Virus record (IMG/VR): IMGVR_UViG_3300015607_004939
Direction: 5' to 3' (one strand)
Origin: an uncultured virus (IMG/VR IMGVR_UViG_3300015607_004939)
Lineage: Duplodnaviria; Heunggongvirae; Uroviricota; Caudoviricetes
Length of the DNA: 58,976 nt
Part shown: in pieces, positions 246 to 56,368 of the stretch
Layout of the letters: every line of letters begins with the position of its first letter
Numbering within the stretch: the stretch's first letter is position 1
The notes under the pieces: model-generated
The model's database searches: none
Told to the model about the DNA's origin: nothing
What the model saw: the letters and a program-made list of their open reading frames with translations, nothing else
Translations under genes and position numbers: made by a program

Positions 246-720
246 CTTCCCTGCCGACATCGACGGAATGCTGAAGGCCGCCGAGGACCCGGAGCCGGAG
301 CCCGACCCCGTGCCGGGCCTCGTGCGCAAGCTCCTCTCCGTCAAGTACGCCGTACTGCTGGCGTACGTGAGCTACGGCGACCAGCTCCGGGGCGCGAACC
401 GCGACGGGCTCTACGAGCACTTCCAGGAGCACGTGAAGGACGAGCGCCGCTCGATCTACGAGTTGAACCGTCACCTCGCCTCGCGGGGGGAGGTGCACGT
501 GCCGCACAACGTCACCATCCCCGAGGTCGAGCTCGGGGGCCCGGTGCCGCTCCTCGGCGTGCTCCTCCAGTTCGAGGAGGCCGCCCTCGAAGCGTGGCGC
601 GAGCTCTTCCGCGCGATCCCGCCGAACAAGAACGTGGGGCTCTCGGGCTTCGCGCAGAACGGCGCGCAAGCCCAGCTCGCCCACGTCGAGGACCTGCGTC
701 GCTGGGGGGCCCGGTCGTGA
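238..720 (+). CDS. Ferritin/bacterioferritin-like four-helix protein
   Basis: Helical pattern AY...EHFQEHVKDE...FEEAALEAW...AHVEDL typical of ferritin-like bundles; some metal ligands look substituted. Confidence 0.65.
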   Translation: MDDFPADIDGMLKAAEDPEPEPDPVPGLVRKLLSVKYAVLLAYVSYGDQLRGANRDGLYEHFQEHVKDERRSIYELNRHLASRGEVHVPHNVTIPEVELGGPVPLLGVLLQFEEAALEAWRELFRAIPPNKNVGLSGFAQNGAQAQLAHVEDLRRWGARS

Positions 721-935
721 AGCGTGTCGAGGTGTCCATGGGCCCGATCGTCCGGGGCGACGCGGGGAAGTTCTCCGGCACGCGCCACGCGTTCACGCAG
801 GCCGAGGAGGTGCTCAAGAAGTACGCGCTCCTGGCGGACAAGGGCAACCCGGCGGACTTCCTCGCCAAGCTCTTCCGCTCGAACCACTTCGGCTACGACG
901 CGAAGACGAACCCCCTCAACCGGCGATACCCGTGA
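717..935 (+). CDS. Small hypothetical protein (72 aa)
   Basis: GTGA overlaps with both neighbours; GTG at 717 in frame of ORF 594..935. Confidence 0.6.
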   Translation: MKRVEVSMGPIVRGDAGKFSGTRHAFTQAEEVLKKYALLADKGNPADFLAKLFRSNHFGYDAKTNPLNRRYP

Positions 936-2731
936 CAACCACCGTCGGTCACCTCCTCATCAACGCGGCCCTCCCTGACACGCACCAGATCTCGGGGCCC
1001 GTGACCAACAAGTTCCTCCACGACCACGTGGTGGACTTGGCCCGCTCGGACCCGCAGAAGTACGTGCGCACCGTCACGGACCTGAAGCGGCGCGGGGACG
1101 AGATCGCCACGCTCGAAGGGATCTCGGTGGGCCTGGACGACATCCGGCCCGACTACGCCGCGCGCGACGCGATCGTGAAGCCCGCCGTCGCCGCCCTGCG
1201 CAAGGCCACCTCGACGGGCGAGAAGGAGCGGGTCATCACCGAGGCGCAGAGCCGGATGCTGGCGTACACCAAGACCCACCCGGGCTCGATGACGCACATG
1301 GCCCTCTCGGGCGCGCGCGGCAACCCAGCGCAGCTCATGAAGATCGTGGGGACGCCGCTCGCGACTACGCACCCGCGCGAGGGCCTCGTGCCGCGCGTCC
1401 TGGAGCGGTCGTACTCCGAGGGGCTCTCCCCGGCCGACTACTGGCTCACCGGGCCCGAGGTCCGGGCCAACGAGGTCGCGGCACGCATCTCGGTGAGCGA
1501 GCCCGGCGAGATGGCCAAGGTGCTCGTGGCGAACATGATCTCGAACGTGGTGACGACGCACGACTGCGGCACGCACGCGGGCGTGCGCCTATCGCTCTCA
1601 GACACGCACGTGCTCGACCGCTACGCCCAGGACAACAAGGGCGTCCCGCGCAACACCCTGGTGACCCCGAGACTCGTCCAGTCGCTCAAGGCCCAAGGGA
1701 CGACGGACCTCTACGTGCGGTCGCCCATGACGTGCGGGGCGAGCAGAGGCGTCTGCCAGATGTGCCAGGGTCACAACGAGAAGGGTCAGCCCCAGCCCAT
1801 CGGGATGACCGTCGGCGTGCGGGCGGCCCAGGCGATGGCCGAGCCCCTCACCCAGATGGCGCTCTCCAGCCGACACGGAACGCTCACCGTCAAGATGACG
1901 ACCAAGAGCCCAACGGGGCTGAAGGGCGTTCGTCAGTTCCTGGAGATCCCCAAGGCGTTCCGCCACGAGGCGGCCCTGGCGCCGGTCACGGGTCAGGTCA
2001 CGGCCGTCGAGCGGGCGCCGCAGGGCGGCCACTACATCCGCGTGGGGACCTCGAAGCTCTACGCGGACCCGGAGCTGGAGCTGCGCGTGCGCGTGGGCGA
2101 TCACGTCGAGGCGGGCGACGCGCTCACCGACGGCGTGCCTCACCCGGCCAAGGTGGTCGAGCACAAGGGTCTCGGCGCGGGGCGCGAGTACTTCGTGAAC
2201 GCCCTGCACAAGGTCTACAAGGACGAGGGCGTGAACCTCGACCGGCGGCACCTGGAGCTCCTCGCCAAGAGCGAGATCAATCACGTGCGTCTGGGCGAGG
2301 TGGACCCCCGCCACCCCGAGCTGCTCAAGGGCGACGTGGTGAACTACAACACCTTCCGCGACGCCTACGCCACCGACGCCCACCCCGTGCCGACCGAGCG
2401 CGCCGTGGGGATGCGCCTCGGCAAGGAGGTCCTGCACCACACGGTGGGCACGCCCGTGACGGAGAGCCTCGCGCGCGAGCTGCGCGCCCGGGGCGTGGGC
2501 GAGGTGCACGTCGCGCGCGGCATGCCAGCCGTCGAGTTCGTGATGAAGCCCTTCACTATGAACCCGCTCCTCGACAAGGACTGGATGGCGAGGCTCGCCC
2601 ACCGCTACCTGAAGAGCACCTTGCAGGACGCCGCCCACACCGGGGACGAGGCGGACCTGCACTCCACCCACCCCGTCCCGGCATGGGCCTTCGGGGCCGA
2701 ACTGCACCACGGGGCGGGCGGCAACTTCTGA
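932..2731 (+). CDS. rpoC: Phage RNA polymerase beta' subunit, C-terminal fragment
   Basis: SGARG..QL, SYSEGL..YW bridge helix, DCGT, RSPMTC..GVCQMC Zn site, VGVRAAQAMAEPLTQMALSSRH trigger loop, DRRHLELL; NADFDGD not in this piece. Confidence 0.9.
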   Translation: MTTTVGHLLINAALPDTHQISGPVTNKFLHDHVVDLARSDPQKYVRTVTDLKRRGDEIATLEGISVGLDDIRPDYAARDAIVKPAVAALRKATSTGEKERVITEAQSRMLAYTKTHPGSMTHMALSGARGNPAQLMKIVGTPLATTHPREGLVPRVLERSYSEGLSPADYWLTGPEVRANEVAARISVSEPGEMAKVLVANMISNVVTTHDCGTHAGVRLSLSDTHVLDRYAQDNKGVPRNTLVTPRLVQSLKAQGTTDLYVRSPMTCGASRGVCQMCQGHNEKGQPQPIGMTVGVRAAQAMAEPLTQMALSSRHGTLTVKMTTKSPTGLKGVRQFLEIPKAFRHEAALAPVTGQVTAVERAPQGGHYIRVGTSKLYADPELELRVRVGDHVEAGDALTDGVPHPAKVVEHKGLGAGREYFVNALHKVYKDEGVNLDRRHLELLAKSEINHVRLGEVDPRHPELLKGDVVNYNTFRDAYATDAHPVPTERAVGMRLGKEVLHHTVGTPVTESLARELRARGVGEVHVARGMPAVEFVMKPFTMNPLLDKDWMARLAHRYLKSTLQDAAHTGDEADLHSTHPVPAWAFGAELHHGAGGNF

Positions 2732-2751
2732 CGTTAGGCTTGTCCCGAGCC

Positions 2752-3555
2752 ATGCCCGCCTCCCCAGACGACCGCGAGCAATACGCCGTACGAACCCTCC
2801 GACGCTACGGCTTGGAGAAGTTCGCCTCGGACCCGTCCCTCCTGGGCCGGCTCGGCGCCGGGGCCAAGTGGCTCTTCTCGCGCCACCCCAACACGCACAC
2901 CCACATGGGGATGGGCCCCGCGACCTACCGGGAGGTGCCGGGCCTCCTCTGGGGAACGAACCGGGTCCCCTCCCTCAGCCGGATGTATCAAGAGCTGCCG
3001 GGCCGGGGGCCCGGACTCGTCAACGCGCTCAAGGACCACGGGCAGGCGTGGGGGGACCTCGTGCGCGACATCTATCTTGGCAGCCCCGTGGACGCCTGGA
3101 AGAGCTTCCAGCAGCACAAGCAGAACTCCGGGTCGACCCTCGGCGGCCTCGGCCGCTTCGCCAAGGAGTACTACTGGCACCCGCAGTCCGGTGGCTTCAT
3201 GAACGCCCTGGGCGTCGCGGCCACCGGCTACGACCTCTACCGCGCCTTAACGGGCGACCCGTCGCAGCGACGCGGGGACATGGCGGCGGCGCTCACGGGC
3301 GCGGCGATCGCCCCCGTCACCGGGCACATGGGGGCGCTCCTCGGCGCCCCGATCCACCTCGGAGTGATCGGTCTCGCTCGACGCCTGGGTCATAAGTTCG
3401 ACCCTCCCGCGACCGGCGAATCGCAGCCCACCCCCTACGCTCCGCGCTTGGACCCTCGTGGCCACACGCGCCGCTGGCTGCGCACCTCCCCCAACGTCCC
3501 CTACCTCGGGGAGGGCTTCCCGGAGATGCCCGACCTCACCGACCTCGCACCCTAA
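2752..3555 (+). CDS. Putative head-associated protein, RYGLxKxA motif, Gly-rich hydrophobic segments
   Basis: ATG 2752 in ORF 1732..3555; LRRYGLEKFA near N-terminus. Confidence 0.7.
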   Translation: MPASPDDREQYAVRTLRRYGLEKFASDPSLLGRLGAGAKWLFSRHPNTHTHMGMGPATYREVPGLLWGTNRVPSLSRMYQELPGRGPGLVNALKDHGQAWGDLVRDIYLGSPVDAWKSFQQHKQNSGSTLGGLGRFAKEYYWHPQSGGFMNALGVAATGYDLYRALTGDPSQRRGDMAAALTGAAIAPVTGHMGALLGAPIHLGVIGLARRLGHKFDPPATGESQPTPYAPRLDPRGHTRRWLRTSPNVPYLGEGFPEMPDLTDLAP

Positions 3556-5524: not shown

Positions 5525-8044
5525 ATGCCCGACCCCTTCTCCCTCCTCCAGTCCCCGCGCTCCCAAGCCTTCGCCCAGGGTCCCTCGGACCCTGCCGACG
5601 AGGAGACCCTGTTCGTGCAGGGGTTCTCCGACCTCGCGTACAAGGCGATGGGCAAGAGCCAGCCCACGCTCATGGCCGACGTCGTCACCTTCCGCGTCCT
5701 GGAGAAGGACGTGGAGAACGGCGAGGCCGTGGGCTCCTTCATCCTGAAGAAGAGGAACGAGGTCATCTTCGTCCCGGTGGTGCTCGTCGACAACGCGGTC
5801 AAGCCCCTGGACATCTTCTACACGCGCAGCCGCGACCGCTACTACCCGCTCTCCTCGGGGTGGCTGCGGCAGGTCGCCAACCAGGGCATCTCCTCGGTGG
5901 GGACGGCCCTGCGGCCCCCGAACACCCTCTCGCAGGACGTGGACATCCGGCATCTGGTGGCGCCGCCCATCCAGGGCCGTACGTCGTACGCCAGCGACGA
6001 GTCCCACCTGGACGGCCGGGAGGCGTTCACGCGACTGCACCGTGAGCTCGGGGACGGCAAGCTCGTCCTCGCCCAGGCCCTGTCGCGCCTGGGGGACCGG
6101 CAGAAGGTCGCCGTGCAGGGCGCGCTCCAGAAGCGCCCCAAGGTGGCCCAGCTCCTGGCCGAGCAGTACGGCGTACCGCTCCTGCGCAACGCGCTGCGCG
6201 TGGCGCCGCAGGAGAAGCGCGCCGACACCGGGTACGAGCGGCCCCTGCGACGAGACGTCTTCATGGCCAACGCCATGACGCCCCTCCAGGAGTTCCAGCG
6301 GGAGCTCGAACCCGGCGAGGTCGCCCACGCCTTCGGCCAGTCCCGGGCCAAGGGGTTCTACGTGCGCGACCTGCGCAAGAACCACGACGAGCTCTTCTCG
6401 CTCTCCGAGACCTCGCTCGCGCTCGCGGAGCCGAAGACGCCGGGCCTGTACCGCATCTACATGGCCTCGGGCGAGGCGCCCGTGGTCCTGGTGATCCCGA
6501 ACCCCCCGTCGATCCACCGGGACTGCTCGCTGGAGACGCCCGCCCCGCCGCGCCGCGCGACCAAGGAGACGCGCTACCTCGTCGTCTTCGAGGACGGCAA
6601 GGCCGCCATGACCGAGCGCCTCTTGGCCGAGGCGGCACCGGCCGACTACGCCGACCTCGTCGGCTTCGTGCGCAAGATTGCCAAGGACAAGCCGGACGCC
6701 TCGGGCCAGGGCAGCCTCGTGACGTTCCGGGGGACAACCGTCACGGTCACCATGCCAGAGCGGGCGGCCAACGTCACGAGCCACGGCGACCGGACGACGT
6801 TCAACCTCGGGGGGTGCCACACCGTCGTGCGCGTGAAGGGCGTGCTCGGCAGTGTGGTCAAGCCCCCCTCGCAGGACACCATCCTCATCGGCGCGGACAC
6901 CCTGTGGCTGCCGCTCAAGATGGAATACATGCGCGAGGGCGACTTCCTCACCGAGCCGCGCCTCGTCTGGTCGATGATCGAGGCGGGGGCGGTCAAGAGC
7001 GGCGCTGAGAAGGTGAGCGTGAAGGTCGCGGCGGACGGCGGGTTCATCATCGGCCCGGAGCGGGTTCAGGCCCGTGGCCTGGACGCCCTCCGGCGCGTGG
7101 CCGTTCGCTATCAGGTCAAGGTCGCCGACGCCGCCAACATCCTCCAAGCGGTGCAGAACCGCGTGCCGGTCTCACTCTTCGTCAAGCACGCGGACGGACC
7201 GCCCCCGGGCGGCGACCCCTCGCAGGGCGGCGGCGACCCATCCATGGGCGGGCAGATGCCGGGCGTGCCGCAGGCCCCGCCCCCGCCGCCCTCGGGCCTG
7301 GACCTCGCCATCGCCGAGAAGAGTCAGGTCATCCAGGCTCAGATCGCCGGGCTCCAGCAGCAGCTCCAGGCGATCAACGAGATCGGCCAGAGGGCCACGA
7401 TGATCGACCAGGGCGGCGGCGGGGCCATGGCCTCCCCCATGGGCTCGACGTCCTCCATGGGGCTGCCCCCGGAGGGCGCGGGCGGGGCCCCCCCGATCGC
7501 GCCGATGGGGCCCTCCGGCGGGCCCCCCATGGCCCCTCCGGGGGGTGCTCCGATGGGCCCGCCGCCGGCCGGTGGGATGCCGACCGGCACCGCACCCGCC
7601 GCCGGGATGCCGCCGCCCGGGGTGCCCCCGCAGGGCGACCCCAACGCCATGGCGCAGGGCGGCCCGCCCCCGGTCATGACCGACTCGCCGACGCCGGACA
7701 CGATCGCCCAGCAGATCAGCCCGAACTTCCTCCAGGACGCGGCGCTGCTCGGCGACCCCCAGGTGTTCGACGCGGCGGCCGTGGCGACGTTCGCGAGGAG
7801 CCGCGCCCTGCGCGAGATCTTCCAGAACTACGCGCCCACGCTCGACAACGCCCTCGACCGCCTGGGCCGCGCGCTGCTCCTGCTCTACACCCAGGCGCGC
7901 GAGATCCGCGAGCAGATCGGCGACGAAGCGCTCCGGGACCTGGAGCAGCGAACGCGCGAGGTGTTCAAGTCCCTCGGCGACGTCATCCTCATGCTGGAGC
8001 AGTACGGCGACCAGTTGAGCCCGGAAGGTCAACCTGCCGTATAA
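5525..8044 (+). CDS. Large putative virion protein (839 aa) with Pro/Gly/Met low-complexity linker
   Basis: Long ORF with coding-like codon pattern in the head cluster; function not recognised. Confidence 0.7.
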   Translation: MPDPFSLLQSPRSQAFAQGPSDPADEETLFVQGFSDLAYKAMGKSQPTLMADVVTFRVLEKDVENGEAVGSFILKKRNEVIFVPVVLVDNAVKPLDIFYTRSRDRYYPLSSGWLRQVANQGISSVGTALRPPNTLSQDVDIRHLVAPPIQGRTSYASDESHLDGREAFTRLHRELGDGKLVLAQALSRLGDRQKVAVQGALQKRPKVAQLLAEQYGVPLLRNALRVAPQEKRADTGYERPLRRDVFMANAMTPLQEFQRELEPGEVAHAFGQSRAKGFYVRDLRKNHDELFSLSETSLALAEPKTPGLYRIYMASGEAPVVLVIPNPPSIHRDCSLETPAPPRRATKETRYLVVFEDGKAAMTERLLAEAAPADYADLVGFVRKIAKDKPDASGQGSLVTFRGTTVTVTMPERAANVTSHGDRTTFNLGGCHTVVRVKGVLGSVVKPPSQDTILIGADTLWLPLKMEYMREGDFLTEPRLVWSMIEAGAVKSGAEKVSVKVAADGGFIIGPERVQARGLDALRRVAVRYQVKVADAANILQAVQNRVPVSLFVKHADGPPPGGDPSQGGGDPSMGGQMPGVPQAPPPPPSGLDLAIAEKSQVIQAQIAGLQQQLQAINEIGQRATMIDQGGGGAMASPMGSTSSMGLPPEGAGGAPPIAPMGPSGGPPMAPPGGAPMGPPPAGGMPTGTAPAAGMPPPGVPPQGDPNAMAQGGPPPVMTDSPTPDTIAQQISPNFLQDAALLGDPQVFDAAAVATFARSRALREIFQNYAPTLDNALDRLGRALLLLYTQAREIREQIGDEALRDLEQRTREVFKSLGDVILMLEQYGDQLSPEGQPAV

Positions 8045-9611: not shown

Positions 9612-10983
9612 GCTCTACGACCGCATGCGCGTCAAGGAGGCGGGCCTCGCCTCGCGGGGCGCGGGGTGGGTGCGCAACGCCTTCTCGGGGATGCGCAACG
9701 GCGCCGCCGGGGCCGCGCACGCCGTCGAGAGCGCGGCGGCGCACGCTCACCCCGTCTCGCCGTCCGGCAGCACCGGGGTTCTGGCCCCCGTGTCGACGGC
9801 CCTCCATGCTCCCCCCATGGCACCCGGCGGCCGTCCCGTCGTGCCGCACGCCGACGTGCGCGCCATGCTCCCGCCGGGTGAGGCGATCCACCTCCCGCCG
9901 GACGTGCATCTGCCGAGCGCGGCACCCGCCACGGCTCCCTCGACGGCCGCCCCCGCCGCCTCCGCGCCCGCTGCCGCGCCCGCTGCCGCCCCCGCCGCGC
10001 CTTCGCCGGCCCCTGCGACCGGTGCGCCTGCGGCCCCCAGTACGCCGTACGAGCACCTCGCCCACGGCGCCCGTGGGCTCGCCCAGCAGGGCTGGCAGGG
10101 GGCCCAGGCGTGGGGGCAGCAGGCCGGGCAGCTCGGCAGGCAAGCCGCCCCCTGGGTCGGGGGCGCGGCGGCCGTGGGCGCGGGCGGCTACGCTCTCTCG
10201 CGCGCCGGTCGTGGCGCGGACGAACAGGAGGCTCGCATGCACGACTACGCCGCCAACTCACACCATCAGATGCCGCAGCCCATGCCCGGGATGAGCGTGT
10301 ACGCGAGTTACGAGGCGTTCGGCGCCGAGAAGCTGGCCGAGCTACTTGCCGCGCTCAAGCACACCTTCAACGCAGGCGACAGCGCGTCTCGCGCGCTCAT
10401 CACGCCCGTCCACGAGGCCAAGACGCTCTACTCGCGCATCCAGGGCGAGCAGACCGAGCACGAGCCGCACACCGCACGCACACTCCGCGAGATGGTCGGC
10501 GCTGGGAAGGAAGTGGCCGACTCCGTGAAGAATCATCCCTTCGTGCGGGGCTACTACCGCAAGGGTGAGGAAAAGGTGGCCGAGCAGCCCCCGCGCTTCG
10601 ACGTGCTGACGCCCACGCACAACGCCTTCGCCGTGGAGTTCGGCAAGGCGCTCGCCAACAAGTTCGTCACCGACCCGATCGACGGGATCCACCGGATCCT
10701 GAAGAAGAAGATCGTCGAGGACCCGAAGGCCATGTCGACCTTCTACGGCGTCATCGAGAGCGACCCCGAGCTCCAGCGCCACTACTCGGAGAACCCCGAT
10801 CAGGTCCACGACACCTTCAAGGCCCTGCGGCGTTTCGGGCCTTCGATGGCGTCCTCCCCCGCCGTCGTGCGCAGCTTCCTCCGTCAGTCGATGATGGCAG
10901 GCGGGAACATGGACTTCGCCACGATCCGCATGCTCGCGGAGACCGAGAAGTTCATCCAGAACAGCCGAGGGCAGGGCAAGTGA
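9601..10983 (+). CDS. KxA-motif putative head protein with Ala/Pro linker
   Basis: VKEAG, EKLA, EKVA; Gly-rich hydrophobic segment. Confidence 0.7.
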   Translation: MSSELYDRMRVKEAGLASRGAGWVRNAFSGMRNGAAGAAHAVESAAAHAHPVSPSGSTGVLAPVSTALHAPPMAPGGRPVVPHADVRAMLPPGEAIHLPPDVHLPSAAPATAPSTAAPAASAPAAAPAAAPAAPSPAPATGAPAAPSTPYEHLAHGARGLAQQGWQGAQAWGQQAGQLGRQAAPWVGGAAAVGAGGYALSRAGRGADEQEARMHDYAANSHHQMPQPMPGMSVYASYEAFGAEKLAELLAALKHTFNAGDSASRALITPVHEAKTLYSRIQGEQTEHEPHTARTLREMVGAGKEVADSVKNHPFVRGYYRKGEEKVAEQPPRFDVLTPTHNAFAVEFGKALANKFVTDPIDGIHRILKKKIVEDPKAMSTFYGVIESDPELQRHYSENPDQVHDTFKALRRFGPSMASSPAVVRSFLRQSMMAGGNMDFATIRMLAETEKFIQNSRGQGK

Positions 10984-11204: not shown

Positions 11205-12232
11205 CGAACGCGTACGCCGTACGGCGGGCCTGGGAGGCGATGAAGACGGCGGCCCTGCGCGGGGGCGCGCCGCTCGTCCCCGCCATGTCTCTCGCCGCGA
11301 TCGAGAAGTGGGCCGAGATCGAGGGGCCGACGGCCCACGGCCTGTCGCGCCCGGAGCGCGAGGCGTGGGCGGCGAGCGTCGCGGGCGCGGCCATGGTCGA
11401 CGCGGCGATCGAGAAGCTCGCCGAGGCCGGTCGCTACACCGAGGCCGAGCGGGAGTTCCTGCTCGACCTGAACGCCGAGGCGGCGGTGCGCGACCTCCGG
11501 TCCCTGTGCAAGTCGGCCGGCATCCTCGGCAACGCCCTGAACGCCATGGCCGCCCACCCCCGCACCACCGGCACGATCGCCGGGGCCGCGATCAGCGGCG
11601 GTCTCGGGGCCTGGAAGGACGACGAGAACCGCCTGCGCGGGGCCGTGAGCTACGGCGTGCCGGGCGCGGTCCTCGGCTACCTGGGCGGAACGGGCCTCGC
11701 CAACTACCAGCAGAACCGGCACATGGCGCGCCTGCACCACGCGACCCAGCTCCTCGAGCAGCAGGCCGCCCAGCAGGCGCAGAGCCTCGCCAACCAGCGC
11801 GCGCTGGCCGACATGGGCCGCGTGGCGGACGACGCGGCGCGCCTGCACAAGAACTTCATCCTGGCCGCCCAGGGGATGGCGCGCGACCGAAACGTCGACC
11901 CGAACAAGGTCCAGGCGATCACGCACGCGATCGACAAGCTCCAGGACCACAGCCACGACATCATCCAGCACGCGGTCATCAACCCGGGGATGCTACACAC
12001 CGAGGTGGCGAACATGATCGACCCAGAGATCCTGAAGGAGATCCAGGGCCGCGCCGCGCACCTCCAGAAGCAGGGCCCGTACGTGCCGCTCGGCTCGCGC
12101 CTGCACCCGGACGACCTCATCGCCGCCGCCCAGGCCCACAGCCGGTCGAGCTTCGGCGGCGGCAAGGGCGGCCAAGGCGCGGCGCCCGGTGGCTCCCCCG
12201 CTCCAGCGCCCGGGACCGCGCCGACCCCGTAA
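11201..12232 (+). CDS. KxA putative head protein with glycine-zipper segments
   Basis: MKTA, EKWA, EKLA, CKSA; GTIAGAAISGGLGA and GVPGAVLGYLGG. Confidence 0.7.
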   Translation: MTNAYAVRRAWEAMKTAALRGGAPLVPAMSLAAIEKWAEIEGPTAHGLSRPEREAWAASVAGAAMVDAAIEKLAEAGRYTEAEREFLLDLNAEAAVRDLRSLCKSAGILGNALNAMAAHPRTTGTIAGAAISGGLGAWKDDENRLRGAVSYGVPGAVLGYLGGTGLANYQQNRHMARLHHATQLLEQQAAQQAQSLANQRALADMGRVADDAARLHKNFILAAQGMARDRNVDPNKVQAITHAIDKLQDHSHDIIQHAVINPGMLHTEVANMIDPEILKEIQGRAAHLQKQGPYVPLGSRLHPDDLIAAAQAHSRSSFGGGKGGQGAAPGGSPAPAPGTAPTP

Positions 12233-12241: not shown

Positions 12242-14035
12242 GTGCGCAAGCTCCTCGAACTCGACCAGTACTTCCCCAAGACGGGGGAGCCGACAGTGCA
12301 ACTGGCGGCCTTCGCCAACCAGCGCGGCGGCCTCTCGATCGAGAAGCGAGCCTTCGCCGAAGGTCACTCGCAGTTCTATGACTTCCTGAAGACCGTCCAG
12401 CCCGAGCCGGGGATCACCTACCTGCTCGTGAACGCGATGGGCTCATGGGAGTACTACGACCTGAACCGCAACGCGGACGGCTTCCCCGAGCGGGCGTACA
12501 TGGTCGGCACGCGCGCCAAGTGCGGCCACCCCGACTGCACGCTGAGCCTGGACGGCTGGGTGAGCGAGCCCGAGACGCTCGTCCACCACTACAAGACCTT
12601 CGAGGAGTCGGGCGGCATCTACCGCCACCACAAGAACGACGACCCCTCCAAGAGTCGCGGGACGGTGAAGCCCGCCCTGTGGAACGCCCGGATGCACCGG
12701 GTGGAGCTGCTCCTCCGGTACGTGAACTCCCGCGACCCGGAGATCCCCTCCAAGATCGCCGACGGGGTGTTCCCGGCCGTCTCGATGGGCTGCCGCGTCG
12801 CCTACGACGTGTGCACAATCTGCGGCCACCGGGCGCCCACGCGCGCGCAGTACTGCTCGCACGCCCTCAGTCAGATGAACGCGATCCTCCCAGACGGGAG
12901 GAAGGTCGGGGTGCTGAACCCACGGCCCCGGTTCTTCGACATCTCGTTCGTCTTCCGACCCGCCGACCCGACGGGCTGGACGCTCCAGAAGGTCGCGCGC
13001 CACGGCGGCATGTCGTCGGCCGAGCTCGGCGAGCTGATGGACCGCGCGGAGGGCTCGCGCCTGCCGTTCTGGTCCACGGCCAAGGAGATCAACGCCTCCT
13101 GGGACGAGCCGGGGAGCTTCATGGGACGCTTCGTGCGCGGGTCGTTCCCGAGCGGGAAGGTGGCCGGCGCACCCTCGACGCTCCTGGAGCTGGCCGCCTC
13201 GCCCGTCCCGCACCCCCAGTCGCTCGTGGCCAAGCTCGCCTCCCAGGCCCTCGGGATCCCGCTCACCGACGACATGGTCGACCGACTCGTGTGCGCGACC
13301 CCGGCCCTCGTCGCCCTGGTCGGCGAGTCCTCGGAGACCGTCAAGCACGCCTCCTTCGGCGAAGCCGGCGACGTCCTCCGAGACCGCGCCTACGCCCCCT
13401 GGCCCGACGTGCCGAGCGTGGACGTGGGCCCCGGCGCCCTGCACCGGGCGGCCGAGCCCCCGCGCACGGACCTGCTCACGATGACCGACCCCTTCACGGG
13501 GGCTGTCTACCAGACGACGCGCGGAGCGGCCCAGGACGCGACGCGGGAGGACGTGAAGAAGCGGCTCCTGAACACCGCCCTCCTCACGGGCCTCTACGCG
13601 GCGGGCCTGCACAAGGCGCTCAAACCGACGGGCCTCGGGGGCCTCGGACGCGCGGCCGTCGCGTTGCCGGTGGGAGCACTCCTCGGCCGGGCGACCGAGC
13701 GCGGTATCCACAACGTCCTCGAACCCTACCGACACCCGTACTACCAGACCGACCAGGGCGTCCCCGTCTCCGGGGGCACCGAGTTCAAGGCGGCCTCGAT
13801 CGAGCCCTCCTCCTGGGCGCGAAAGCTCGCCTCGGACCTGGAGGAGCGCGACGCCGCCCGCGCCCGGATCGCCCGGCGCGGGGGGCACCGATTCTTGAAG
13901 TGGGCCGCGAGCCCCTTGGACCTCCAGGTCCGCTCACTCGCCGGGGAAGACCGCGCCCCCGAGGAGCCGTACGCCGTACGACCCGACGACGCCCGCGACA
14001 TGGCCGAGCGTCTGACGTTCCTGCTGACCACCTAA
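12242..14035 (+). CDS. Prohead (capsid maturation) protease with Cys/His insertion
   Basis: NRNADGF, YRHH, AVSMGCRVAYDVCTICG..YCSH, FFDISFVFRPAD match HK97/herpes-type phage maturation proteases; upstream of capsid gene. Confidence 0.8.
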   Translation: MRKLLELDQYFPKTGEPTVQLAAFANQRGGLSIEKRAFAEGHSQFYDFLKTVQPEPGITYLLVNAMGSWEYYDLNRNADGFPERAYMVGTRAKCGHPDCTLSLDGWVSEPETLVHHYKTFEESGGIYRHHKNDDPSKSRGTVKPALWNARMHRVELLLRYVNSRDPEIPSKIADGVFPAVSMGCRVAYDVCTICGHRAPTRAQYCSHALSQMNAILPDGRKVGVLNPRPRFFDISFVFRPADPTGWTLQKVARHGGMSSAELGELMDRAEGSRLPFWSTAKEINASWDEPGSFMGRFVRGSFPSGKVAGAPSTLLELAASPVPHPQSLVAKLASQALGIPLTDDMVDRLVCATPALVALVGESSETVKHASFGEAGDVLRDRAYAPWPDVPSVDVGPGALHRAAEPPRTDLLTMTDPFTGAVYQTTRGAAQDATREDVKKRLLNTALLTGLYAAGLHKALKPTGLGGLGRAAVALPVGALLGRATERGIHNVLEPYRHPYYQTDQGVPVSGGTEFKAASIEPSSWARKLASDLEERDAARARIARRGGHRFLKWAASPLDLQVRSLAGEDRAPEEPYAVRPDDARDMAERLTFLLTT

Positions 14036-23601: not shown

Positions 23602-23639
23602 CGCTGTACGGCGTACTCCGAGGCGCGTAGCTTCGAGTC

Positions 23640-26664: not shown

Positions 26665-26667
26665 CCG

Positions 26668-30128: not shown

Positions 30129-30145
30129 AGAATACGCCGTACCCT
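30129..30145. promoter_or_regulatory. Candidate bidirectional promoter centred on TACGCCGTA
   Basis: TACCCT-N6-ATG(30152) on + and TATTCT-N9-ATG(30119) on -, each starting at a terminal TA of the palindrome. Confidence 0.65.
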
Positions 30146-30151
30146 AACCGC

Positions 30152-42291: not shown

Positions 42292-42315
42292 GGATCTCCC
42301 CTTAGTCTAGAGGCG

Positions 42316-42328
42316 TACGCCGTACTCT
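42316..42328 (+). promoter_or_regulatory. Palindrome fused to -10 box (candidate leaderless promoter)
   Basis: TACGCCG-TACTCT-N5-ATG 42334. Confidence 0.6.
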
Positions 42329-42333
42329 TGGGC

Positions 42334-43497
42334 ATGCTGGTCAGCCGACGCTCAAACCTGCCGCTCTCGCGCATCGCCCCGCTCGCCAACGGCGAGAGCA
42401 TCAACGGCACGAACACCGGGGGGTCGGACTCTGCGCTCGTCACCAACGACGCGGACGCGCCGGGGCTGGTGCTCGGGGACACGAACCGCCTGATCGTCGC
42501 GGCGGGGCGGTTCGCGCTCATGGGCGGCAACACGGGCGGCCTGAACCTCCCGACCTACACCTCCGGTCAGATCGCCTCGATCACGGGCAAATCCGAGGGC
42601 CTGACGATCTGGAACGCCTCGACGCACCTGCCGAACTTCTGGAACGGGTCGGCCTGGATCGCCGGGGACGGGTCGGGGGGCGCGGCCCTGCCGGACCCCG
42701 GGTCCGGTACGGCGTACGCCGTCCCCTACTCGAACGGAGCAGGGTCCTACCTCCTCTCCCCGGCCCCAGGCGGCAACACGAACGTGGCGCTCGCCGTGAA
42801 CGACGCAGGCAACGCCCTCCAGTGGCGTCGCTACATGCCGGCCACGCTCGTCTACGGAACGAACTTCCTCCCCAAGGACACCGGCCTCTACATCGGGGCC
42901 AACGACGGCACGGCCACATTCTCGGTCTACGGACAGGGGGCGTACGTCAGCCAGGGCTCGACCATCCTCAAGCTGCGATCGAAGCTCTCGCCCACGGCCG
43001 ACCCCACGCAGCTCCAGGTGGGGTCGAGCGACGGCTACTACGGGGCAATGGAGGTATGGGCCGCCGGCAAGGGCTTCTACGTGTACAGCGGGTCCAACCT
43101 CAGCACGCCACGGTCCTTCTGGTGGATGGTCGACGACGTTGCGATGGTGTCCAACGTACCCATCGACAGCCGGGCCGGGGACGTCGTCATCAACGGGGAC
43201 ACCGTCACCCTCGCACTGCCGGTGGGCAAGAGCGCCGCGTGCTATGAAGTCGTCATCACAGGCAATGACGGCAGTGACGCGCGCTACGTCCTGCCCGCGA
43301 TCATCTCCATGGTTCGTCGGGATGACGGCACCATCGAAGGCACACTCACTCCGCTCCCCTCCCACCCAGCGACCGCCCCAGCCTGGGTCACCGAACCCGT
43401 GGTGGACTCTGGCACGAACAGCGCGGTCATCACCCTCGCCCCCTCCAGCGCCACCTGGAGGACCAGCGTGCGCGCCCGCGCACTCACCAATGTGTGA
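42334..43497 (+). CDS. Putative tail fibre/appendage protein
   Basis: LPTYTSGQI..EGLTIWNAST..FWNGSAW fibre-type motif; G/S/T/N-rich. Confidence 0.6.
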   Translation: MLVSRRSNLPLSRIAPLANGESINGTNTGGSDSALVTNDADAPGLVLGDTNRLIVAAGRFALMGGNTGGLNLPTYTSGQIASITGKSEGLTIWNASTHLPNFWNGSAWIAGDGSGGAALPDPGSGTAYAVPYSNGAGSYLLSPAPGGNTNVALAVNDAGNALQWRRYMPATLVYGTNFLPKDTGLYIGANDGTATFSVYGQGAYVSQGSTILKLRSKLSPTADPTQLQVGSSDGYYGAMEVWAAGKGFYVYSGSNLSTPRSFWWMVDDVAMVSNVPIDSRAGDVVINGDTVTLALPVGKSAACYEVVITGNDGSDARYVLPAIISMVRRDDGTIEGTLTPLPSHPATAPAWVTEPVVDSGTNSAVITLAPSSATWRTSVRARALTNV

Positions 43498-45183: not shown

Positions 45184-45190
45184 CCCCAAA

Positions 45191-45203
45191 AGAATACGGC
45201 GTA
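45191..45203 (-). promoter_or_regulatory. Palindrome fused to -10 box (candidate leaderless promoter)
   Basis: TACGCCG-TATTCT-N7-ATG 45183. Confidence 0.6.
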
Positions 45204-46803: not shown

Positions 46804-47382
46804 ATGCGACACCTACTGCGTCAGGTGAGCCGGTTCTTCCCGAAGTTCGTCATGCATGGGGGCGACCATACGCCGTACCTGAGCCGCTACCGGATCTTCG
46901 AGACGCCCGACTACCGCCTGTTCCTCCACCAGTTCCACCGGGGCGACTCCGACCGCGAGGTGCACAACCACCCCTGGAGCTGGGCCATGTCGCTGATCCT
47001 CTCCGGGGGATACGAGGAGGAGTGCGTCGTCGAGGGCCTGCACCTCTCGTCCGAGGACGGGTGGCTCTTGGACGCCCTGCACACGACGAAGCGCTTCTTC
47101 GGGCCGGGATCGGTCAACTGGATCGACACCGAGACCTACCACCGTGTCACGCTCCCTCACGGCGAGGCGTGGTCCCTCATCCTCTCCGGGCCCAAAACGG
47201 CTTCCTGGGGCTTCGTGCGCCTGTCGGACTGGAAGTACACGCCCTGGCGCGAGTTCATCCGCCAGAAGGGCCTGGACCCCAAGGAGGGCCCGTCGCGCTG
47301 GTCGGAGCCCGAGACCACGCTGCGACGGGAGGTCGAGAAGTGGTTGCTGGCGCGCCTCAACGCGTACGCGGAGGCGTCATGA
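46804..47382 (+). CDS. Cupin-fold protein
   Basis: LHQFHRGDSDREVHNHPW..SLILSGGYEE..YHRV. Confidence 0.75.
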   Translation: MRHLLRQVSRFFPKFVMHGGDHTPYLSRYRIFETPDYRLFLHQFHRGDSDREVHNHPWSWAMSLILSGGYEEECVVEGLHLSSEDGWLLDALHTTKRFFGPGSVNWIDTETYHRVTLPHGEAWSLILSGPKTASWGFVRLSDWKYTPWREFIRQKGLDPKEGPSRWSEPETTLRREVEKWLLARLNAYAEAS

Positions 47383-47531: not shown

Positions 47532-47855
47532 GTGAAGACCGAATCCGACGTTACGCCGTACGCCCGGCTCTCCCCTCTCGCCCAGAAGATCCTGGACCTC
47601 CTCCGGTCCGAGACGGACGAGGACGCCGCCGACGCCATCGGCGTCGCCTTCAGCCACCTCGTGAAGGACCGGTTCGACGTGCCGCGCCTCGGGTGCGACT
47701 ACGCCTTCGTCGACACCGTCCTCCAGGACAAGACCCTCGGCGCGATGCACGTGCGGGCGATCGTGCTGCGGCAGATCCCGGCCGTGGACCGCGAGAGGAA
47801 GTACGCGACGGGCGAGGAGGCGGGCGCCGATCCGCCGGCCAAGGAGGAGCCGTGA
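47532..47855 (+). CDS. Hypothetical protein
   Basis: AGGAG RBS; protein-like ORF. Confidence 0.55.
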   Translation: MKTESDVTPYARLSPLAQKILDLLRSETDEDAADAIGVAFSHLVKDRFDVPRLGCDYAFVDTVLQDKTLGAMHVRAIVLRQIPAVDRERKYATGEEAGADPPAKEEP

Positions 47856-49805: not shown

Positions 49806-50333
49806 TCACTGCTCCTGCGAGCGCGCGTACTCCAGCACGTCGAGCTCCGTCGGACGGTCGTGCCACGCGCCCTCGTCCGTCGTCGTGGTGGCGGGCAGCT
49901 CGTTCATCATCGCCGTGCCCCGCCCCACCGGGGAGCAGGCGGCCTTGCCGTCACCGAAGCACACGACCTTGAGCCCCATGGCACGGCCGATCGTGTGGGC
50001 CACCATGGCCCGGAAGGCCCGGGGGCTCGGGGCGCAGTAGGCGTCGACGTACGCCGTACGGCTCGCGACGTCGAAGTGGTAGCCGCTCGCGCAGTCGGTG
50101 ACTGCCGGAGCGAGGGTGACCCGGGCGCCCGGGTCGCGCGTCAGGCGGAACTCGGGGCCGAGGTGCCCCATGGCGTCGAGAGCGGCGCGGATCTCGTGCA
50201 GGTGCTCCTCGGCGAAGAGGTAGTCCACCTGGACGAGGACGACGGCCCGCCCCGGCGGGCACTCCCCGGCGGGCGGCGCGCCCATACAAGCGAGGGCGCA
50301 GAGGACAGTGAAGGCGAAGGCGATGTGTCGCAT
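49806..50333 (-). CDS. Secreted metzincin-like protein with degenerate active site
   Basis: Signal/lipoprotein-like N-terminus; AHTIGRAMGL in place of HExGHxxGL; AMMN Met-turn. Confidence 0.55.
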   Translation of the reverse strand: MRHIAFAFTVLCALACMGAPPAGECPPGRAVVLVQVDYLFAEEHLHEIRAALDAMGHLGPEFRLTRDPGARVTLAPAVTDCASGYHFDVASRTAYVDAYCAPSPRAFRAMVAHTIGRAMGLKVVCFGDGKAACSPVGRGTAMMNELPATTTTDEGAWHDRPTELDVLEYARSQEQ

Positions 50334-50437
50334 GAAGACCTCCGTGGCGGGGTGAAGCACCCGCTCCGATCTTGTACCCGTAACTTGACGGCTAAACGGA
50401 TGCGGCGCGTCGTGGCCCCCGAAAGGGGCCTCCCATC

Positions 50438-51863: not shown

Positions 51864-51869
51864 GCGCGA

Positions 51870-51900
51870 AGCATACGCCGTAGTCCGGCGGGTGTAGAGT
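51870..51900. promoter_or_regulatory. Candidate divergent promoters around TACGCCGTA
   Basis: TATGCT-N6-ATG(51863) on -, TAGAGT-N7-ATG(51908) on +. Confidence 0.6.
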
Positions 51901-52882: not shown

Positions 52883-53446
52883 GTGAAGACGCATACTTGT
52901 GCTCATTGCCGATCAGAGTTCAAGGCGTACGGGAAGCCGAAGTTCTGCTCAAAGTCCTGTCGAGAAACTGCCTCCGGCACGGTGATTCACAACTGCCCAA
53001 CCTGCAACAAACCGTTCAAGGTCATTCGGTCACGAATGACGAGAAGCAAGAATGTCTATTGCAGCGATTCTTGTCGGTCACAAAGGACCGTAGGTCGCGG
53101 ACCTGCCAACCCAATGTGGAAAGGTGGGTCTAAGGCCACCCAAGCACGGGCTTTACGGCGTATCTATGGCAACGACTGCATGCGCTGTGGTTGGAGTGAA
53201 GCTCAGACAGATGTGCACCACATCGAGCCGAAACGTGTGGCGCAGAACCACCAACTATCAAACCTCATCATCCTCTGCCCCAACTGTCATCGACTAGCGG
53301 ACAACGGAATCCTCAGCGTCGAGGTTCTTCAAGCGCTGAGAGATCGCGCGCCATCAAAGATTGATCCGAACGAGATCAGGACCGAAGCTGTTCCTCTTCT
53401 CGAAGTGAAGGACATAGCTGAATCCTCCTTCGAGCCAGACCGGTGA
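52883..53446 (+). CDS. HNH endonuclease with N-terminal Zn-finger repeats
   Basis: CAHC..FCSKSC, CPTC..YCSDSC, NPMWKGG, DVHH..NLIILCPNCH; visibly lower GC. Confidence 0.85.
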   Translation: MKTHTCAHCRSEFKAYGKPKFCSKSCRETASGTVIHNCPTCNKPFKVIRSRMTRSKNVYCSDSCRSQRTVGRGPANPMWKGGSKATQARALRRIYGNDCMRCGWSEAQTDVHHIEPKRVAQNHQLSNLIILCPNCHRLADNGILSVEVLQALRDRAPSKIDPNEIRTEAVPLLEVKDIAESSFEPDR

Positions 53447-53905: not shown

Positions 53906-54310
53906 TTAGACCCACGCCTCGTACGGCGTATCGTCGCCGTGATCGAAGGGCTCCCGGGGCCCGCCGCCGGCCCAGGGCGCCCTCACGATGAGCGCCAAGC
54001 CCTCGTCGGCGTGGGCTTGCGTGAGCGGCGTCAGGCGCAGCCGGTCCAGCCGAACGAAGGTGGGAATGTCGGCGTTGCCGGAGTCCGCAAGGTCCCACCA
54101 GTCCTGCGAACGCCGCCCGAGGTTGCAGGGGCGGCAGGCGGTGACGACGTTCGTGGGGTGGTGCGAGCCGCCCAGGGAGCGCGGCGTCAGGTGGTCGAGG
54201 GTGGGATCCTGCGTAAGACGATCACACCACGCACATCGGGCTCCATCCAGGCACGCGCCGTCCCGGACGTAGATCGCCCAGCGGGTGGTGCGCCGGATCC
54301 ACTGGCTCAA
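53906..54310 (-). CDS. HNH endonuclease
   Basis: IYVRDG..CAWC..TLDHLTPRSLGGSHHPTNVVTACRPCN. Confidence 0.85.
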   Translation of the reverse strand: MSQWIRRTTRWAIYVRDGACLDGARCAWCDRLTQDPTLDHLTPRSLGGSHHPTNVVTACRPCNLGRRSQDWWDLADSGNADIPTFVRLDRLRLTPLTQAHADEGLALIVRAPWAGGGPREPFDHGDDTPYEAWV

Positions 54311-55257: not shown

Positions 55258-55290
55258 CACCCCGGGCACCCGCGATGGGCGCCCGGGGTG
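55258..55290 (-). terminator. GC-rich hairpin after minus-strand operon
   Basis: CACCCCGGGCACCC/GGGCGCCCGGGGTG with one non-Watson-Crick pair; pyrimidine tail CTCTCCCCTTT on -. Confidence 0.55.
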
Positions 55291-55304
55291 GTCGGTGTGG
55301 TGGG

Positions 55305-56015
55305 TCAGCCCGCCTGGGTCTTGGCGCGGGCGCGGGCGGCCTCGATGACCTCCGCGTCGATCTGGCGGAAGGTCTCGGCGAGCTCCTTCTGAAGCTGCTC
55401 GGGGCAGCACTCGACGTACACGTCGCGCGCGGCCATCATCGCGAGGTGCTTCACGAGCGGCGGCATGCCACGGAACGGGTCGGGCATGCGCTCGTGGGTG
55501 AAGCCGTTGACGCCCGTCTGCATGTCGTAGGCGAAGGTCGCCCAGGCCATCAGGAGGTCGTCCTTCACGAGGCCCTCGGCATTGTCCTCGGCATCGTCCA
55601 TGTGCTCGGCGAGCGCGCCGCACACCTGGGCGATCTGGGGCCTCAGGTCGGCGCGGGCGTGCTGGATCGTGCGCAGGCGCGCCAGGATGGGCTCGACCTG
55701 CACCACGCCCTCGGCGTCCACCGCGTGGGGCGGCAGGTCGACGATCGAGGTGCGGGCGTTGGGCGTGGGCTTGCCGTTGAGCGCGTCGCGGAGCTCCTCC
55801 GTGGTCTCGAAGCTCGTCACGGCGAAGCCGGCCTTGCCGAAGCGGCCGACGATCTTGTCCGCGAGACCGGTGGCCAGCATCCGGCTGTACCAGTCGTCGG
55901 GGTAGGCGCCGCCCCGAGCGGCCTTGATGGCGCTCGTGGCGGCCTCCCAGTCGTCTGCGGACGAACAGGCGTTGAGGCGGGCGAACTCGTCAGGCGTGAT
56001 GTTGGGCTGAGTCAT
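55305..56015 (-). CDS. Hypothetical protein
   Basis: ATG 56015 (ATGA overlap), AGGAG RBS. Confidence 0.65.
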   Translation of the reverse strand: MTQPNITPDEFARLNACSSADDWEAATSAIKAARGGAYPDDWYSRMLATGLADKIVGRFGKAGFAVTSFETTEELRDALNGKPTPNARTSIVDLPPHAVDAEGVVQVEPILARLRTIQHARADLRPQIAQVCGALAEHMDDAEDNAEGLVKDDLLMAWATFAYDMQTGVNGFTHERMPDPFRGMPPLVKHLAMMAARDVYVECCPEQLQKELAETFRQIDAEVIEAARARAKTQAG

Positions 56016-56368
56016 GGGAGCTTCTCCTTGGAGGTTCTCAGGAACGCGTTGCGGAACGGCTCGTGGCTCGGGTCGCCCCGGAAGGCCACCGCGATGAAGT
56101 CGTCGTCGATACGGCGTACCGTGTGAATGGGGCTTCGCTGCTGGTGGTTCAGGTGGATGGTGAAGAGGGCGATCTGGCTCTTGCGGGCCTCGTAGAAGTG
56201 GATCTCGTTCGAGCCTTGGCTCCACGAGGTGCCCCACGTGTAGGCGGTGCACAGGCGCGAGACCACCTGGACGACGGAGGCGAGCGCATCCTGGCGCCTC
56301 ATCTGCTTGCGCAGGACGACGTTGAGCACGTTCGGGTCGACCATGCCCCGGGTGGTGTGATCGGTCAC
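56012..56368 (-). CDS. Hypothetical protein
   Basis: GTG 56368 after GGAGG; protein-like part of ORF 56012..57253. Confidence 0.55.
   Translation of the reverse strand: MTDHTTRGMVDPNVLNVVLRKQMRRQDALASVVQVVSRLCTAYTWGTSWSQGSNEIHFYEARKSQIALFTIHLNHQQRSPIHTVRRIDDDFIAVAFRGDPSHEPFRNAFLRTSKEKLP

Follow-up and report, generated by a model that had tools for sequence, protein, structure and literature searches.

The 58,976-nucleotide stretch of DNA analysed here, IMG/VR record IMGVR_UViG_3300015607_004939 from an uncultured member of the Caudoviricetes (hereafter the window), carries many copies of the short palindrome TACGSCGTA, in which S stands for C or G. These copies form a real, strongly non-random and conserved lattice of evenly spaced, symmetric sites that follows the phage lineage. 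With moderate confidence we regard them, in their full form RTACGSCGTAY, as predicted docking sites for an orphan ParB/KorB-type protein of the phage, which would keep the whole chromosome loaded. The window belongs to an uncultured phage of roughly 170-190 kb. It overlaps the 99,906-b IMG/VR record G001, with window base 1 corresponding to G001 base 62,572, and for counting the two were joined (2 mismatches in 37,335 b) into a sequence of 121,547 b with a GC content of 68.9%, referred to as the joined sequence.

Frequency and form of the motif

A pattern search returned 24 exact copies of TACGSCGTA in the window and thereby confirmed every position named in the original prediction, which had been made from the sequence alone. 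The chance level, taken from 100 dinucleotide-preserving shuffles, is 0.07 copies with a largest value of 1 in any shuffle, in full agreement with the earlier estimate of fewer than one. The density of one copy per 2.46 kb likewise falls within the predicted 2-2.5 kb, at a GC content of 65-73% in the window. Three variants with A or T in the centre (TACGTCGTA) are indeed present at 5980, 19869 and 27265, the last of them within the largest gap between exact copies (23607 to 30133, 6,526 b). The extension to GTACGSCGTAC, previously ascribed to many copies, applies to 12 of the 24. When all 27 window sites are considered, position -1 is occupied by G (16), A (8) or T (3) and position +1 by C (22), T (4) or G (1). 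The full motif is thus an 11-bp palindrome, RTACGSCGTAY.

The joined sequence contains 48 exact sites, and the motif is by far its most enriched 9-mer, with 0.86 and 2.5 copies expected from Markov models of order 3 and order 5, respectively. Half-sites are scarce away from full sites (13 of 109 occurrences of TACGSCGT on both strands), and single-mismatch variants total 27, including seven with A or T in the centre. A heuristic based on the GC content of third codon positions (GC3) called 121 genes on this sequence, 92% of which is coding; the calls are rough, especially with regard to gene starts. Within genes, 36 sites are found as opposed to 1.66 ± 1.17 under synonymous-codon shuffling (maximum 6 in 200 shuffles). 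The enrichment thus survives a codon-aware null, the check that had been proposed for it, and this excess points to selection on the DNA itself. When the seven centre variants are added to the 48 exact copies, 43 of the 55 sites lie in genes, 22 of them in phase 0, 17 in phase 2 and four in phase 1. They occur on both gene strands and encode YAV, YGV, TPY, TAY or RR, and each of these readings requires a codon ending in A or T, which is rare given the high GC3 of the genome. The statement that copies reside in genes of both strands, in different frames and between genes therefore holds for the joined sequence. A second, weaker enriched word, TTGCGCAGG/CCTGCGCAA, occurs 13 times compared with 1.25 expected (order-3 Markov model), and TTGCGCA occurs 33 times compared with 8.5. 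At full length, the TTGCGCAGG/CCTGCGCAA word is not palindromic.

Conservation and lineage variants of the motif

Relatives of the phage were identified on the basis of the terminase (40-81% identity), and two of them are complete (G004, 172,885 b; G006, 186,803 b with terminal repeats). In five relatives, G002 to G006, the motif is present in 16, 39, 92, 22 and 71 copies, i.e., once per 1.9-2.6 kb, whereas the reversed, non-complemented control yields 0, 0, 1, 0 and 0 copies. Where sites of the joined sequence could be placed at orthologous codons by tblastn, the motif proved exact in 10 of 20 cases in G004 and in 11 of 25 in G006. Among background 9-nt windows, the eight outer bases are kept in 4.7% (G004) and 7.1% (G006), at nucleotide identities of 60% and 64%. 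Around conserved sites, the proteins are in places no more than 36-50% identical, the centre base flips between C and G at orthologous sites, and site s9989 keeps the motif through an exchange of Ala and Pro. The comparison with related phages that had been suggested as a test thus finds about half of the alignable sites at the same codons, and the fact that roughly half are not shared points to turnover under continued selection for density.

Relatives with a terminase about 50% identical keep the core ACGSCGT and differ in the arms. In G009 the site is TTCACGnCGTGAA, a 13-bp palindrome with the consensus TTCACGSCGTGAA, found 23 times compared with 0.03 expected, and CACG-type copies are also among the matches listed for L193 and L196. 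Clade D (G007, G010, G011 and G013) carries CTTTACGSCGT, which is asymmetric outside the ACGSCGT core: sites with the TT arm at both ends number 3 of 47 in G013, 3 of 37 in G011, 0 of 22 in G007 and 0 of 34 in G010. G011 (49% GC) and G013 (63.5% GC) have the same variant and ParB proteins that are 79% identical. This sharing across a wide gap in GC content indicates that the motif follows the phage lineage and not base composition, and probably not the host. The fragments G015 and G016 showed no enriched motif, and neither did Salmonella phage Arash.

HIP1 of cyanobacteria, to which the motif had been likened, is a short, vastly over-represented palindrome that extends over the host chromosome. 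That the phage motif is such a host-wide signature, or a compositional feature arising from codon or dipeptide bias, and has no phage-specific function is extremely improbable. The codon-preserving and Markov nulls are exceeded 20-55 fold, the sites encode five different peptides in three frames, and related phages carry different variants. Furthermore, 43 of 80 genomes reached via similarity to the ribonucleotide reductase of the phage (0.7-11.3 Mb; a set that need not include the true host) contain 1-51 copies each, compared with 1-103 for the reversed control, and thus show no enrichment. The highest bacterial density is 22 per Mb versus 395-532 per Mb in the phages. Host-wide enrichment, which had been named as the outcome that would refute a phage system, is therefore absent from these candidate genomes, and the analogy with HIP1 fails on this point and on the lineage-bound variants. 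What a host-wide feature has in its favour is that the decisive genome, that of the host, lies outside the genomes compared. The ribonucleotide reductase is closest (51-53% identity) to metagenome-assembled genomes labelled Proteobacteria, Gemmatimonadota and Latescibacterota; the 51% identity to the latter two is a weak pointer, which we do not treat as a host call.

Spacing, orientation and gene context

The sites are spaced much more evenly than random ones. In the joined sequence, the coefficient of variation (CV) of the gaps between the 48 sites is 0.53 compared with 0.97 ± 0.13 for random positions, and not one of 20,000 random sets proved as regular; the largest gap of 6,526 b compares with a null median of 10,557 b. 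The complete relatives behave in the same way. The CV is 0.58 both in G004 (92 sites, mean gap 1,887 b; null about 0.98 ± 0.1, lowest value 0.73) and in G006 (71 sites, mean gap 2,575 b; null about 0.98 ± 0.1, lowest value 0.67), so that the proposed test of spacing regularity came out positive in three genomes. All four clade D records are likewise regular (CV 0.54-0.71, p ≤ 0.025). Very short and very long gaps are both scarce, as would be expected if one site sufficed per stretch of DNA and a neighbouring second copy brought no further benefit. Regular spacing fits a function in coverage.

Both orientation and gene context bear on the possibility that the motif is a promoter or another transcription signal for the RNA polymerase or the sigma factors of the phage, which we consider very unlikely. 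In its favour, the phage encodes an RNA polymerase beta'-like protein as well as sigma factors, sites are enriched two- to threefold between genes (25% versus 8% in the joined sequence, where 12 of 48 sites lie between gene calls, 35% versus 16% in G004 and 23% versus 12% in G006), and three window sites are located in divergent junctions of only 32-36 bp. On the other hand, 65-77% of the sites are intragenic, often deep within long open reading frames (ORFs), and divergent junctions show no greater enrichment than convergent or co-directional ones. The centre base, the only asymmetric position of the palindrome, is balanced between C and G on the plus strand (28:20, 48:44 and 38:33 in the joined sequence, G004 and G006) and is not tied to gene direction, as the in-gene sites of the joined sequence split 15:21 relative to the coding strand. 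Even the asymmetric form of clade D is untied to the gene strand (16:17, 12:12 and 12:5). Taken together, orientation and context speak against a role as promoter, stoperator-like terminator, Chi-like signal or strand-specific nick site, and the comparison with stoperators drawn in the original prediction does not hold for a symmetric motif that is not oriented with transcription. We read the intergenic excess as a sign of cheaper placement and not as proof of promoters.

Two more specific ideas were rejected along the same lines. A directional or hairpin-promoter signal does not fit a centre base that is unbiased and flips between orthologues, and a divergent promoter would call for an enrichment at divergent junctions beyond that at other junctions. 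The divergent gene pairs of the window nevertheless deserve mention in their own right. Each of the following gaps of 32-36 bp holds one copy of the motif:
30119-30152, divergent gene pair
42291-42328, divergent gene pair
51863-51899, divergent gene pair
Two conventional promoters would not fit into these junctions, leaving leaderless transcripts or promoters located within the adjacent genes as possible arrangements.

An orphan ParB as candidate reader

The dyad, the scarcity of half-sites and the unbiased, flipping centre fit a symmetric, dimeric reader. Our candidate is P0001, a protein of 368 amino acids whose gene is situated roughly 10.5 kb upstream of the start of the window, together with two small ORFs:
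L007:10920-12026 on G001, minus strand: parB, encoding P0001
L007:11920-12384, minus strand: small ORF upstream of parB
L007:12258-12485, minus strand: small ORF upstream of parB

P0001 matches the Pfam family HTH_ParB with 52.5 bits (cut-off 22.6, E-value 6e-14), while ParBc gives no match at E ≤ 0.01. Among solved structures, its sequence matches Spo0J (1vz0, 1e-9), Noc (7ol9) and the ParB proteins of B. subtilis, M. xanthus and Caulobacter, and is nearer to Spo0J and Noc than to KorB. A structure model built with 11 orthologues (mean predicted local distance difference test score 75) resembles M. xanthus ParB-CDP, Noc-NBS, B. subtilis ParB, Spo0J and KorB (8qa9) over about 190-240 columns, and the predicted similarity spans the nucleotide-binding and the DNA-binding domains. 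In the model, the fold of the DNA-binding domain matches 6y93, 6s6h and 1r71, and the N-terminal fold aligns with CDP- or CTPgammaS-bound ParB structures (7bnk, 7bnr and 6sdk). P0001 is thus well supported as a member of the family with a ParB helix-turn-helix (HTH), and an N-terminal nucleotide-binding fold of the ParB type is predicted. Contact residues equivalent to Q162 and R204, as numbered in PMC7383237, are kept in all 12 phage ParBs. Box II can be aligned with GERRxRA, yet all 12 orthologues have G-R-[RCQ]-R-x-x-[AG] there, with Arg in the place of Glu.

The gene is present in 12 of 15 records of relatives, and the three records without it are fragments of 15-43% completeness. Three types of ParB DNA-binding domain accompany the three types of motif, a pairing in keeping with co-evolution, although phylogeny is a confounder; the three further records from a second scan for relatives of ParB were too few for an independent test of co-variation. 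ParA (PF13614) was detected in none of five records including both complete genomes, with 14 of 14 controls positive, and the ParA-binding motif (L|F|I)G[KR]G(L|F|I), defined in PMC12704722, is found in none of the 12 phage ParBs. The protein is therefore an orphan ParB as defined in that work, and neither the ParA partner nor the ParA-binding motif of a canonical ParABS partition system was found. Cultured phages gave only weak, partial tblastn matches to the phage ParB (27-35% identity, up to 57% of the query), and Arash has neither an HTH_ParB match nor a dispersed palindrome.

Both small ORFs are conserved in all 12 records with parB. One encodes a zinc-ribbon of the type CxxC...CxxC with roughly 75 amino acids, the other a helical protein of roughly 115 amino acids, the variable acidic tail of which overlaps the start of parB in another frame; neither has a Pfam match above the cut-off, the best E-value being 0.004. 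Together with parB they look like a three-gene block. In 11 of 12 genomes, a motif copy, TTTACGSCGTAYG, is found at a fixed position about 390 bp upstream of parB, and G009, with its different motif, is the one genome without this copy. It lies within the zinc-ribbon ORF, where it codes for LRRT with a rare TTA codon, and is located about 25 nt ahead of the ORF for the helical protein. Judged from the sequence, this arrangement is compatible with autoregulation, an argument that is weakened by the coding constraint.

Several observations weigh against ParB as the reader. The gene lies outside the window, on a near-identical record and not on the window's own assembly. With Arg in place of Glu in box II, the protein may hydrolyse CTP differently or not at all, and the same perhaps applies to clamp cycling; several DNA-contact positions of ParB and Noc, as mapped onto the residues given in PMC7383237, are changed. 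Many other core genes share the distribution of parB and the motif, so that co-occurrence and co-variation are confounded by phylogeny. The copy upstream of parB is conserved at least partly because of the protein constraint on the zinc-ribbon ORF. In G009, spacing is not significantly regular (CV 0.80, p 0.20), the clade D motif shows an asymmetry that would not be expected with a symmetric dimer, and G015 contains the 3' end of parB and no enriched motif in its 46.8 kb.

Part of this also speaks for another symmetric protein as the reader, be it an unrecognised regulator of the phage, such as the zinc-ribbon or the other small protein encoded upstream of parB, or a protein of the host. We judge this alternative to be less likely than not by a clear measure, though it deserves serious consideration. 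Most proteins of the phage match no family and could hide another reader, two conserved small ORFs adjoin parB, the lack of a host assignment leaves room for a reader encoded by the host, and the asymmetric motif of clade D is atypical of ParB sites. A host reader is difficult to reconcile with a variant that follows the phage lineage across GC contents of 49% and 63.5%, and neither small ORF matches a DNA-binding family. We favour ParB as it is the only conserved protein here that stems from a family known to read dispersed palindromes.

Comparison with known systems

KorB and its operator OB on the IncP plasmid RK2 represent the closest known system, with a reader that likewise belongs to the ParB family and carries an HTH. 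The OB core is printed as TTTAGCGGCTAAA in PMC11790492, and the phage site shares with it the odd length of the palindrome, the C or G in the centre and the T-rich arms (TTTACG-S-CGT layout). In the model put forward there, OB is the loading site of KorB-CTP, which slides from it and thereby reaches promoters at distances of up to more than 1 kb (PMC11790492). OB sites are described at varied distances from promoters (PMC11790492), and the phage sites are similarly scattered over the replicon. In contrast to KorB, the phage has no ParA/IncC partner in any of five records and no KorA-like partner was identified, its ParB is closer to Spo0J and Noc by sequence and has Arg at the Glu position of box II, and its roughly 70-90 sites per genome are mostly intragenic and evenly spaced. 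The KorB-OB regulon has a partner repressor (KorA/TrbA) and operators upstream of promoters; of the phage sites, 23-35% are intergenic, a two- to threefold enrichment. Furthermore, this replicon belongs to a large phage, and nothing points to a plasmid lifestyle like that of RK2.

Noc is among the top sequence and fold matches of the phage ParB. The density of Noc-binding sites (NBS) is far below that of the phage lattice. As described in PMC7383237 and PMC8429893, Noc of Bacillus is an orphan ParB paralogue without ParA that has many dispersed palindromes, and in this respect it resembles the phage system. NBS is given as an even 16-bp palindrome, TATTTCCC-GGGAAATA, and consensus parS as TGTTTCAC-GTGAAACA (PMC7383237). 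The phage site differs from NBS in its odd length, and an N-terminal membrane-targeting helix like that of Noc was not seen in the phage ParB on inspection by eye. Chromosomal ParB-parS systems share the fold and the HTH with the phage protein, and the TTTCAC arm of G009 equals the parS half-site printed in PMC7383237, the half-sites being 3 bp further apart in the phage. Unlike these systems, the phage lacks ParA and the ParA-binding motif, and its sites are not clustered. Dyad symmetry of the parS, NBS and OB type is displayed by RTACGSCGTAY and TTCACGSCGTGAA, but not by the clade D motif outside its core.

Among phages, Cluster O mycobacteriophages are reported to harbour over 30 copies of a 17-bp dyad repeat, TGTTCGGNNNCCGAACA, with no function assigned (PMC4351075). 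They also encode a protein with a ParB-like domain; the authors predict a dimeric binder and, in the sections dealing with the repeats, draw no link between the two (PMC4351075). As in our phage family, the repeats are distributed throughout the genome, both inside genes and in the gaps separating them, and do not follow the direction of transcription (PMC4351075). Sequence and phage family differ, and about two thirds of the Cluster O repeats are intergenic or near gene starts, with a higher density at one genome end (PMC4351075). Cluster A stoperators also comprise many copies of a short site all over the genome including the inside of genes, but are described as asymmetric and transcription-oriented (PMC4351075), while the phage motif is symmetric and untied to the gene strand. 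By analogy, KorB/OB and Noc/NBS are therefore closer counterparts than stoperators or HIP1.

Possible modification or nicking of the sites

The original prediction had envisaged a dimeric protein that either binds or modifies DNA. A putative bound dimer is in keeping with the dyad, the flipping centre and the conserved ParB candidate, whereas the modifying half finds no counterpart in the genomes: C5, N6/N4 and D12 methyltransferases (PF00145, PF01555 and PF02086) were detected in none of five records, with positive controls, and these families are also absent from all general Pfam scans. A restriction-modification target would go along with a cognate methyltransferase of the phage, and none was found in these records. 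We thus rate it as quite unlikely that the motif is the target of a modification or nicking enzyme, i.e., a thymine dioxygenase with a ParB-like activator or a nickase in the style of T5 and phiKMV. The idea draws on reports that ParB-like proteins of phages can activate thymine dioxygenases (PMC13229309) and that nick-associated motifs occur in other phages (PMC11780129), as well as on two HNH genes in the window. However, the ParBs associated with dioxygenases are described in PMC13229309, in the part that covers them, as devoid of a DNA-binding domain, which P0001 possesses; Tet_JBP matched none of five records, with the controls equally silent. Modification or protection predicts neither over-representation nor even spacing nor positional conservation, symmetry and the free orientation of the centre argue against strand-specific nicks, and the HNH genes are not conserved in relatives. 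A dioxygenase-like gene of the window is not conserved in relatives either.

The HNH endonuclease genes themselves each contain or abut a copy of the motif:
52883-53446, plus strand: HNH endonuclease gene, motif copy at 53154
53906-54310, minus strand: HNH endonuclease gene, motif copy at 53922
No homologue was found in six of six records of relatives, and both are probably mobile, homing-type genes.

Proposed function and significance

From these observations we infer ParB as the reader and, by analogy with KorB and Noc, propose that each palindrome would serve a dimer as a nucleation point, from which it would go on to spread or slide along the adjoining DNA. One site every 2-2.5 kb would keep the whole chromosome of 170-190 kb loaded, and selection for coverage could explain the even spacing, the placement in coding sequence against codon bias, the conservation at the level of codons and the two- to threefold intergenic excess. 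The resulting coat might silence transcription genome-wide or set its timing, as is the case with KorB, or it might serve to compact, mark or shield phage DNA. A more far-reaching version appears rather improbable to us: the lattice and a ParB without ParA and with a replaced box II Glu would coat the entire lytic chromosome as long-lived clamps or as a condensate and mark phage DNA as self. Such a ParB-DNA compartment might shield against host nucleases and defence or organise replication and packaging and, if it existed, would represent an alternative to the phage nucleus that needs neither membrane nor shell and derives from a chromosome-segregation protein.

Arrays of dispersed operators with clamps of the ParB family have been described for one plasmid regulon (KorB/OB) and for one chromosomal system (Noc/NBS). 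Here, a phage family with genomes of roughly 180 kb keeps 70-90 evenly spaced copies of a site, maintained at fixed codons in spite of codon bias and even of amino-acid identity, and encodes an orphan ParB. If ParB is the reader, this would amount to genome-scale use of the CTP-switch clamp by a virus, suggest how the repeats of Cluster O mycobacteriophages might be explained and offer, with the TACG, CACG and TTTACG arms, a natural set of specificity variants in which the evolution of ParB recognition could be studied. Our literature searches on the motif and on phage and orphan ParB proteins returned no published description of such a phage lattice. Searches for motif strings led to unrelated topics among the matches listed, in which the degenerate forms TACGSCGTA, GTACGSCGTAC and TACGNCGTA do not occur, and a survey of orphan and phage ParB folds (PMC12704722) contains no word beginning with 'palindrom'.

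Sites in the window

The sites of the window and their gene context are as follows, with the strand of the gene given in brackets:
346..354, TACGCCGTA: inside ferritin-like gene 238-720 (+); the same codons hold the motif in G004 and G006
2782..2790, TACGCCGTA: between gene calls, past RNA polymerase beta'-like gene 932-2731
5980..5988, TACGTCGTA, centre variant (A or T): gene 5525-8044 (+)
6167..6175, TACGGCGTA: gene 5525-8044 (+); conserved in G004 and G006
10041..10049, TACGCCGTA: gene 9601-10983 (+)
11213..11221, TACGCCGTA: 12 nt into gene 11201-12232 (+); conserved in G006
13970..13978, TACGCCGTA: close to the end of gene 12242-14035 (+)
14871..14879, TACGCCGTA: gene 14694-15080 (+); conserved in G006
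17452..17460, TACGCCGTA: gene 17287-18105 (+); conserved in G004 and G006
19869..19877, TACGTCGTA, centre variant: gene 18840-22178 (+)
21460..21468, TACGGCGTA: gene 18840-22178 (+); retained in G004 and G006, where the centre is C instead
23607..23615, TACGGCGTA: between gene calls
27265..27273, TACGTCGTA, centre variant: gene 26668-27459 (-); fills the largest gap
30133..30141, TACGCCGTA: 32-bp junction of divergent genes (starts 30119 - and 30152 +)
33236..33244, TACGCCGTA: gene 33169-33852 (-)
35923..35931, TACGGCGTA: gene 35404-36030 (-)
40149..40157, TACGCCGTA: last three codons of gene 40146-40679 (-)
42316..42324, TACGCCGTA: 36-bp junction of divergent genes (starts 42291 - and 42328 +)
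42708..42716, TACGGCGTA: gene 42328-43497 (+)
45195..45203, TACGGCGTA: immediately upstream of the start of gene 44476-45189 (-)
46869..46877, TACGCCGTA: 65 nt into gene 46804-47382 (+)
47552..47560, TACGCCGTA: 20 nt into gene 47532-47855 (+)
50050..50058, TACGCCGTA: gene 49806-50360 (-); conserved in G006
51874..51882, TACGCCGTA: short junction of divergent genes (starts 51863 - and about 51899 +)
53154..53162, TACGGCGTA: intergenic in the final calls, within ORF 52883-53446 (+; HNH endonuclease)
53922..53930, TACGGCGTA: near the end of HNH gene 53906-54310 (-)
56110..56118, TACGGCGTA: between final gene calls, within first-pass ORF 55305-56252 (-)

The phage and its relatives

The window has no match among 50,697 deposited phage records (megablast and blastn), and the sequencing runs that contain it are wastewater metagenomes only, with no RNA run among those listed. 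Pfam and PHROG scans indicate a large tailed phage. Genes for structure and packaging (terminase, protease, head decoration protein), replication (family A DNA polymerase, ribonucleotide reductase, helicases, one of them with an intein, and a PD-(D/E)XK nuclease) and transcription (sigma factors and the RNA polymerase beta'-like protein) were found, while most proteins match no family in either collection. The nearest cultured phages by terminase, at about 31% identity, are Arash and three Vibrio phages.

Further genes of the phage and its relatives comprise:
932-2731 of the window, plus strand: RNA polymerase beta'-like protein (Pfam RNA_pol_Rpb1_5, E-value 1e-15)
L007:10149-10916, plus strand: protein with sigma-70 region 2, adjoining parB
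48344-48415 of the window, minus strand: 72-nt tRNA with anticodon CUA, labelled tRNA-Pyl by ARAGORN
L005:4814-7837 on G001, minus strand: helicase of 1,007 amino acids with Hint and LAGLIDADG domains
L032:8316-11345 on G006, plus strand: Hen1-like methyltransferase fused to a PNKP-ligase domain (RNA repair)
L031:9247-10089 on G006, plus strand: Thg1-like tRNA-His guanylyltransferase

The phage may thus carry parts of its own transcription machinery. The anticodon of the tRNA would read the amber stop codon; the call is the only tRNA in the window, and ARAGORN detected none in the first 80 kb of G001. The helicase is apparently intein-bearing, and its orthologue in G006 has 679 amino acids and neither the Hint nor the LAGLIDADG domain. 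G006 further encodes ThyX, dCMP deaminase, a dNMP kinase and an ADP-ribosylglycohydrolase. In the 90-kb relative G010, a tandem hexamer-type repeat with GGCTAC units (e.g. GCCGTAGCCGT, 26 times on both strands) dominates the k-mer table and is probably a repetitive coding region.

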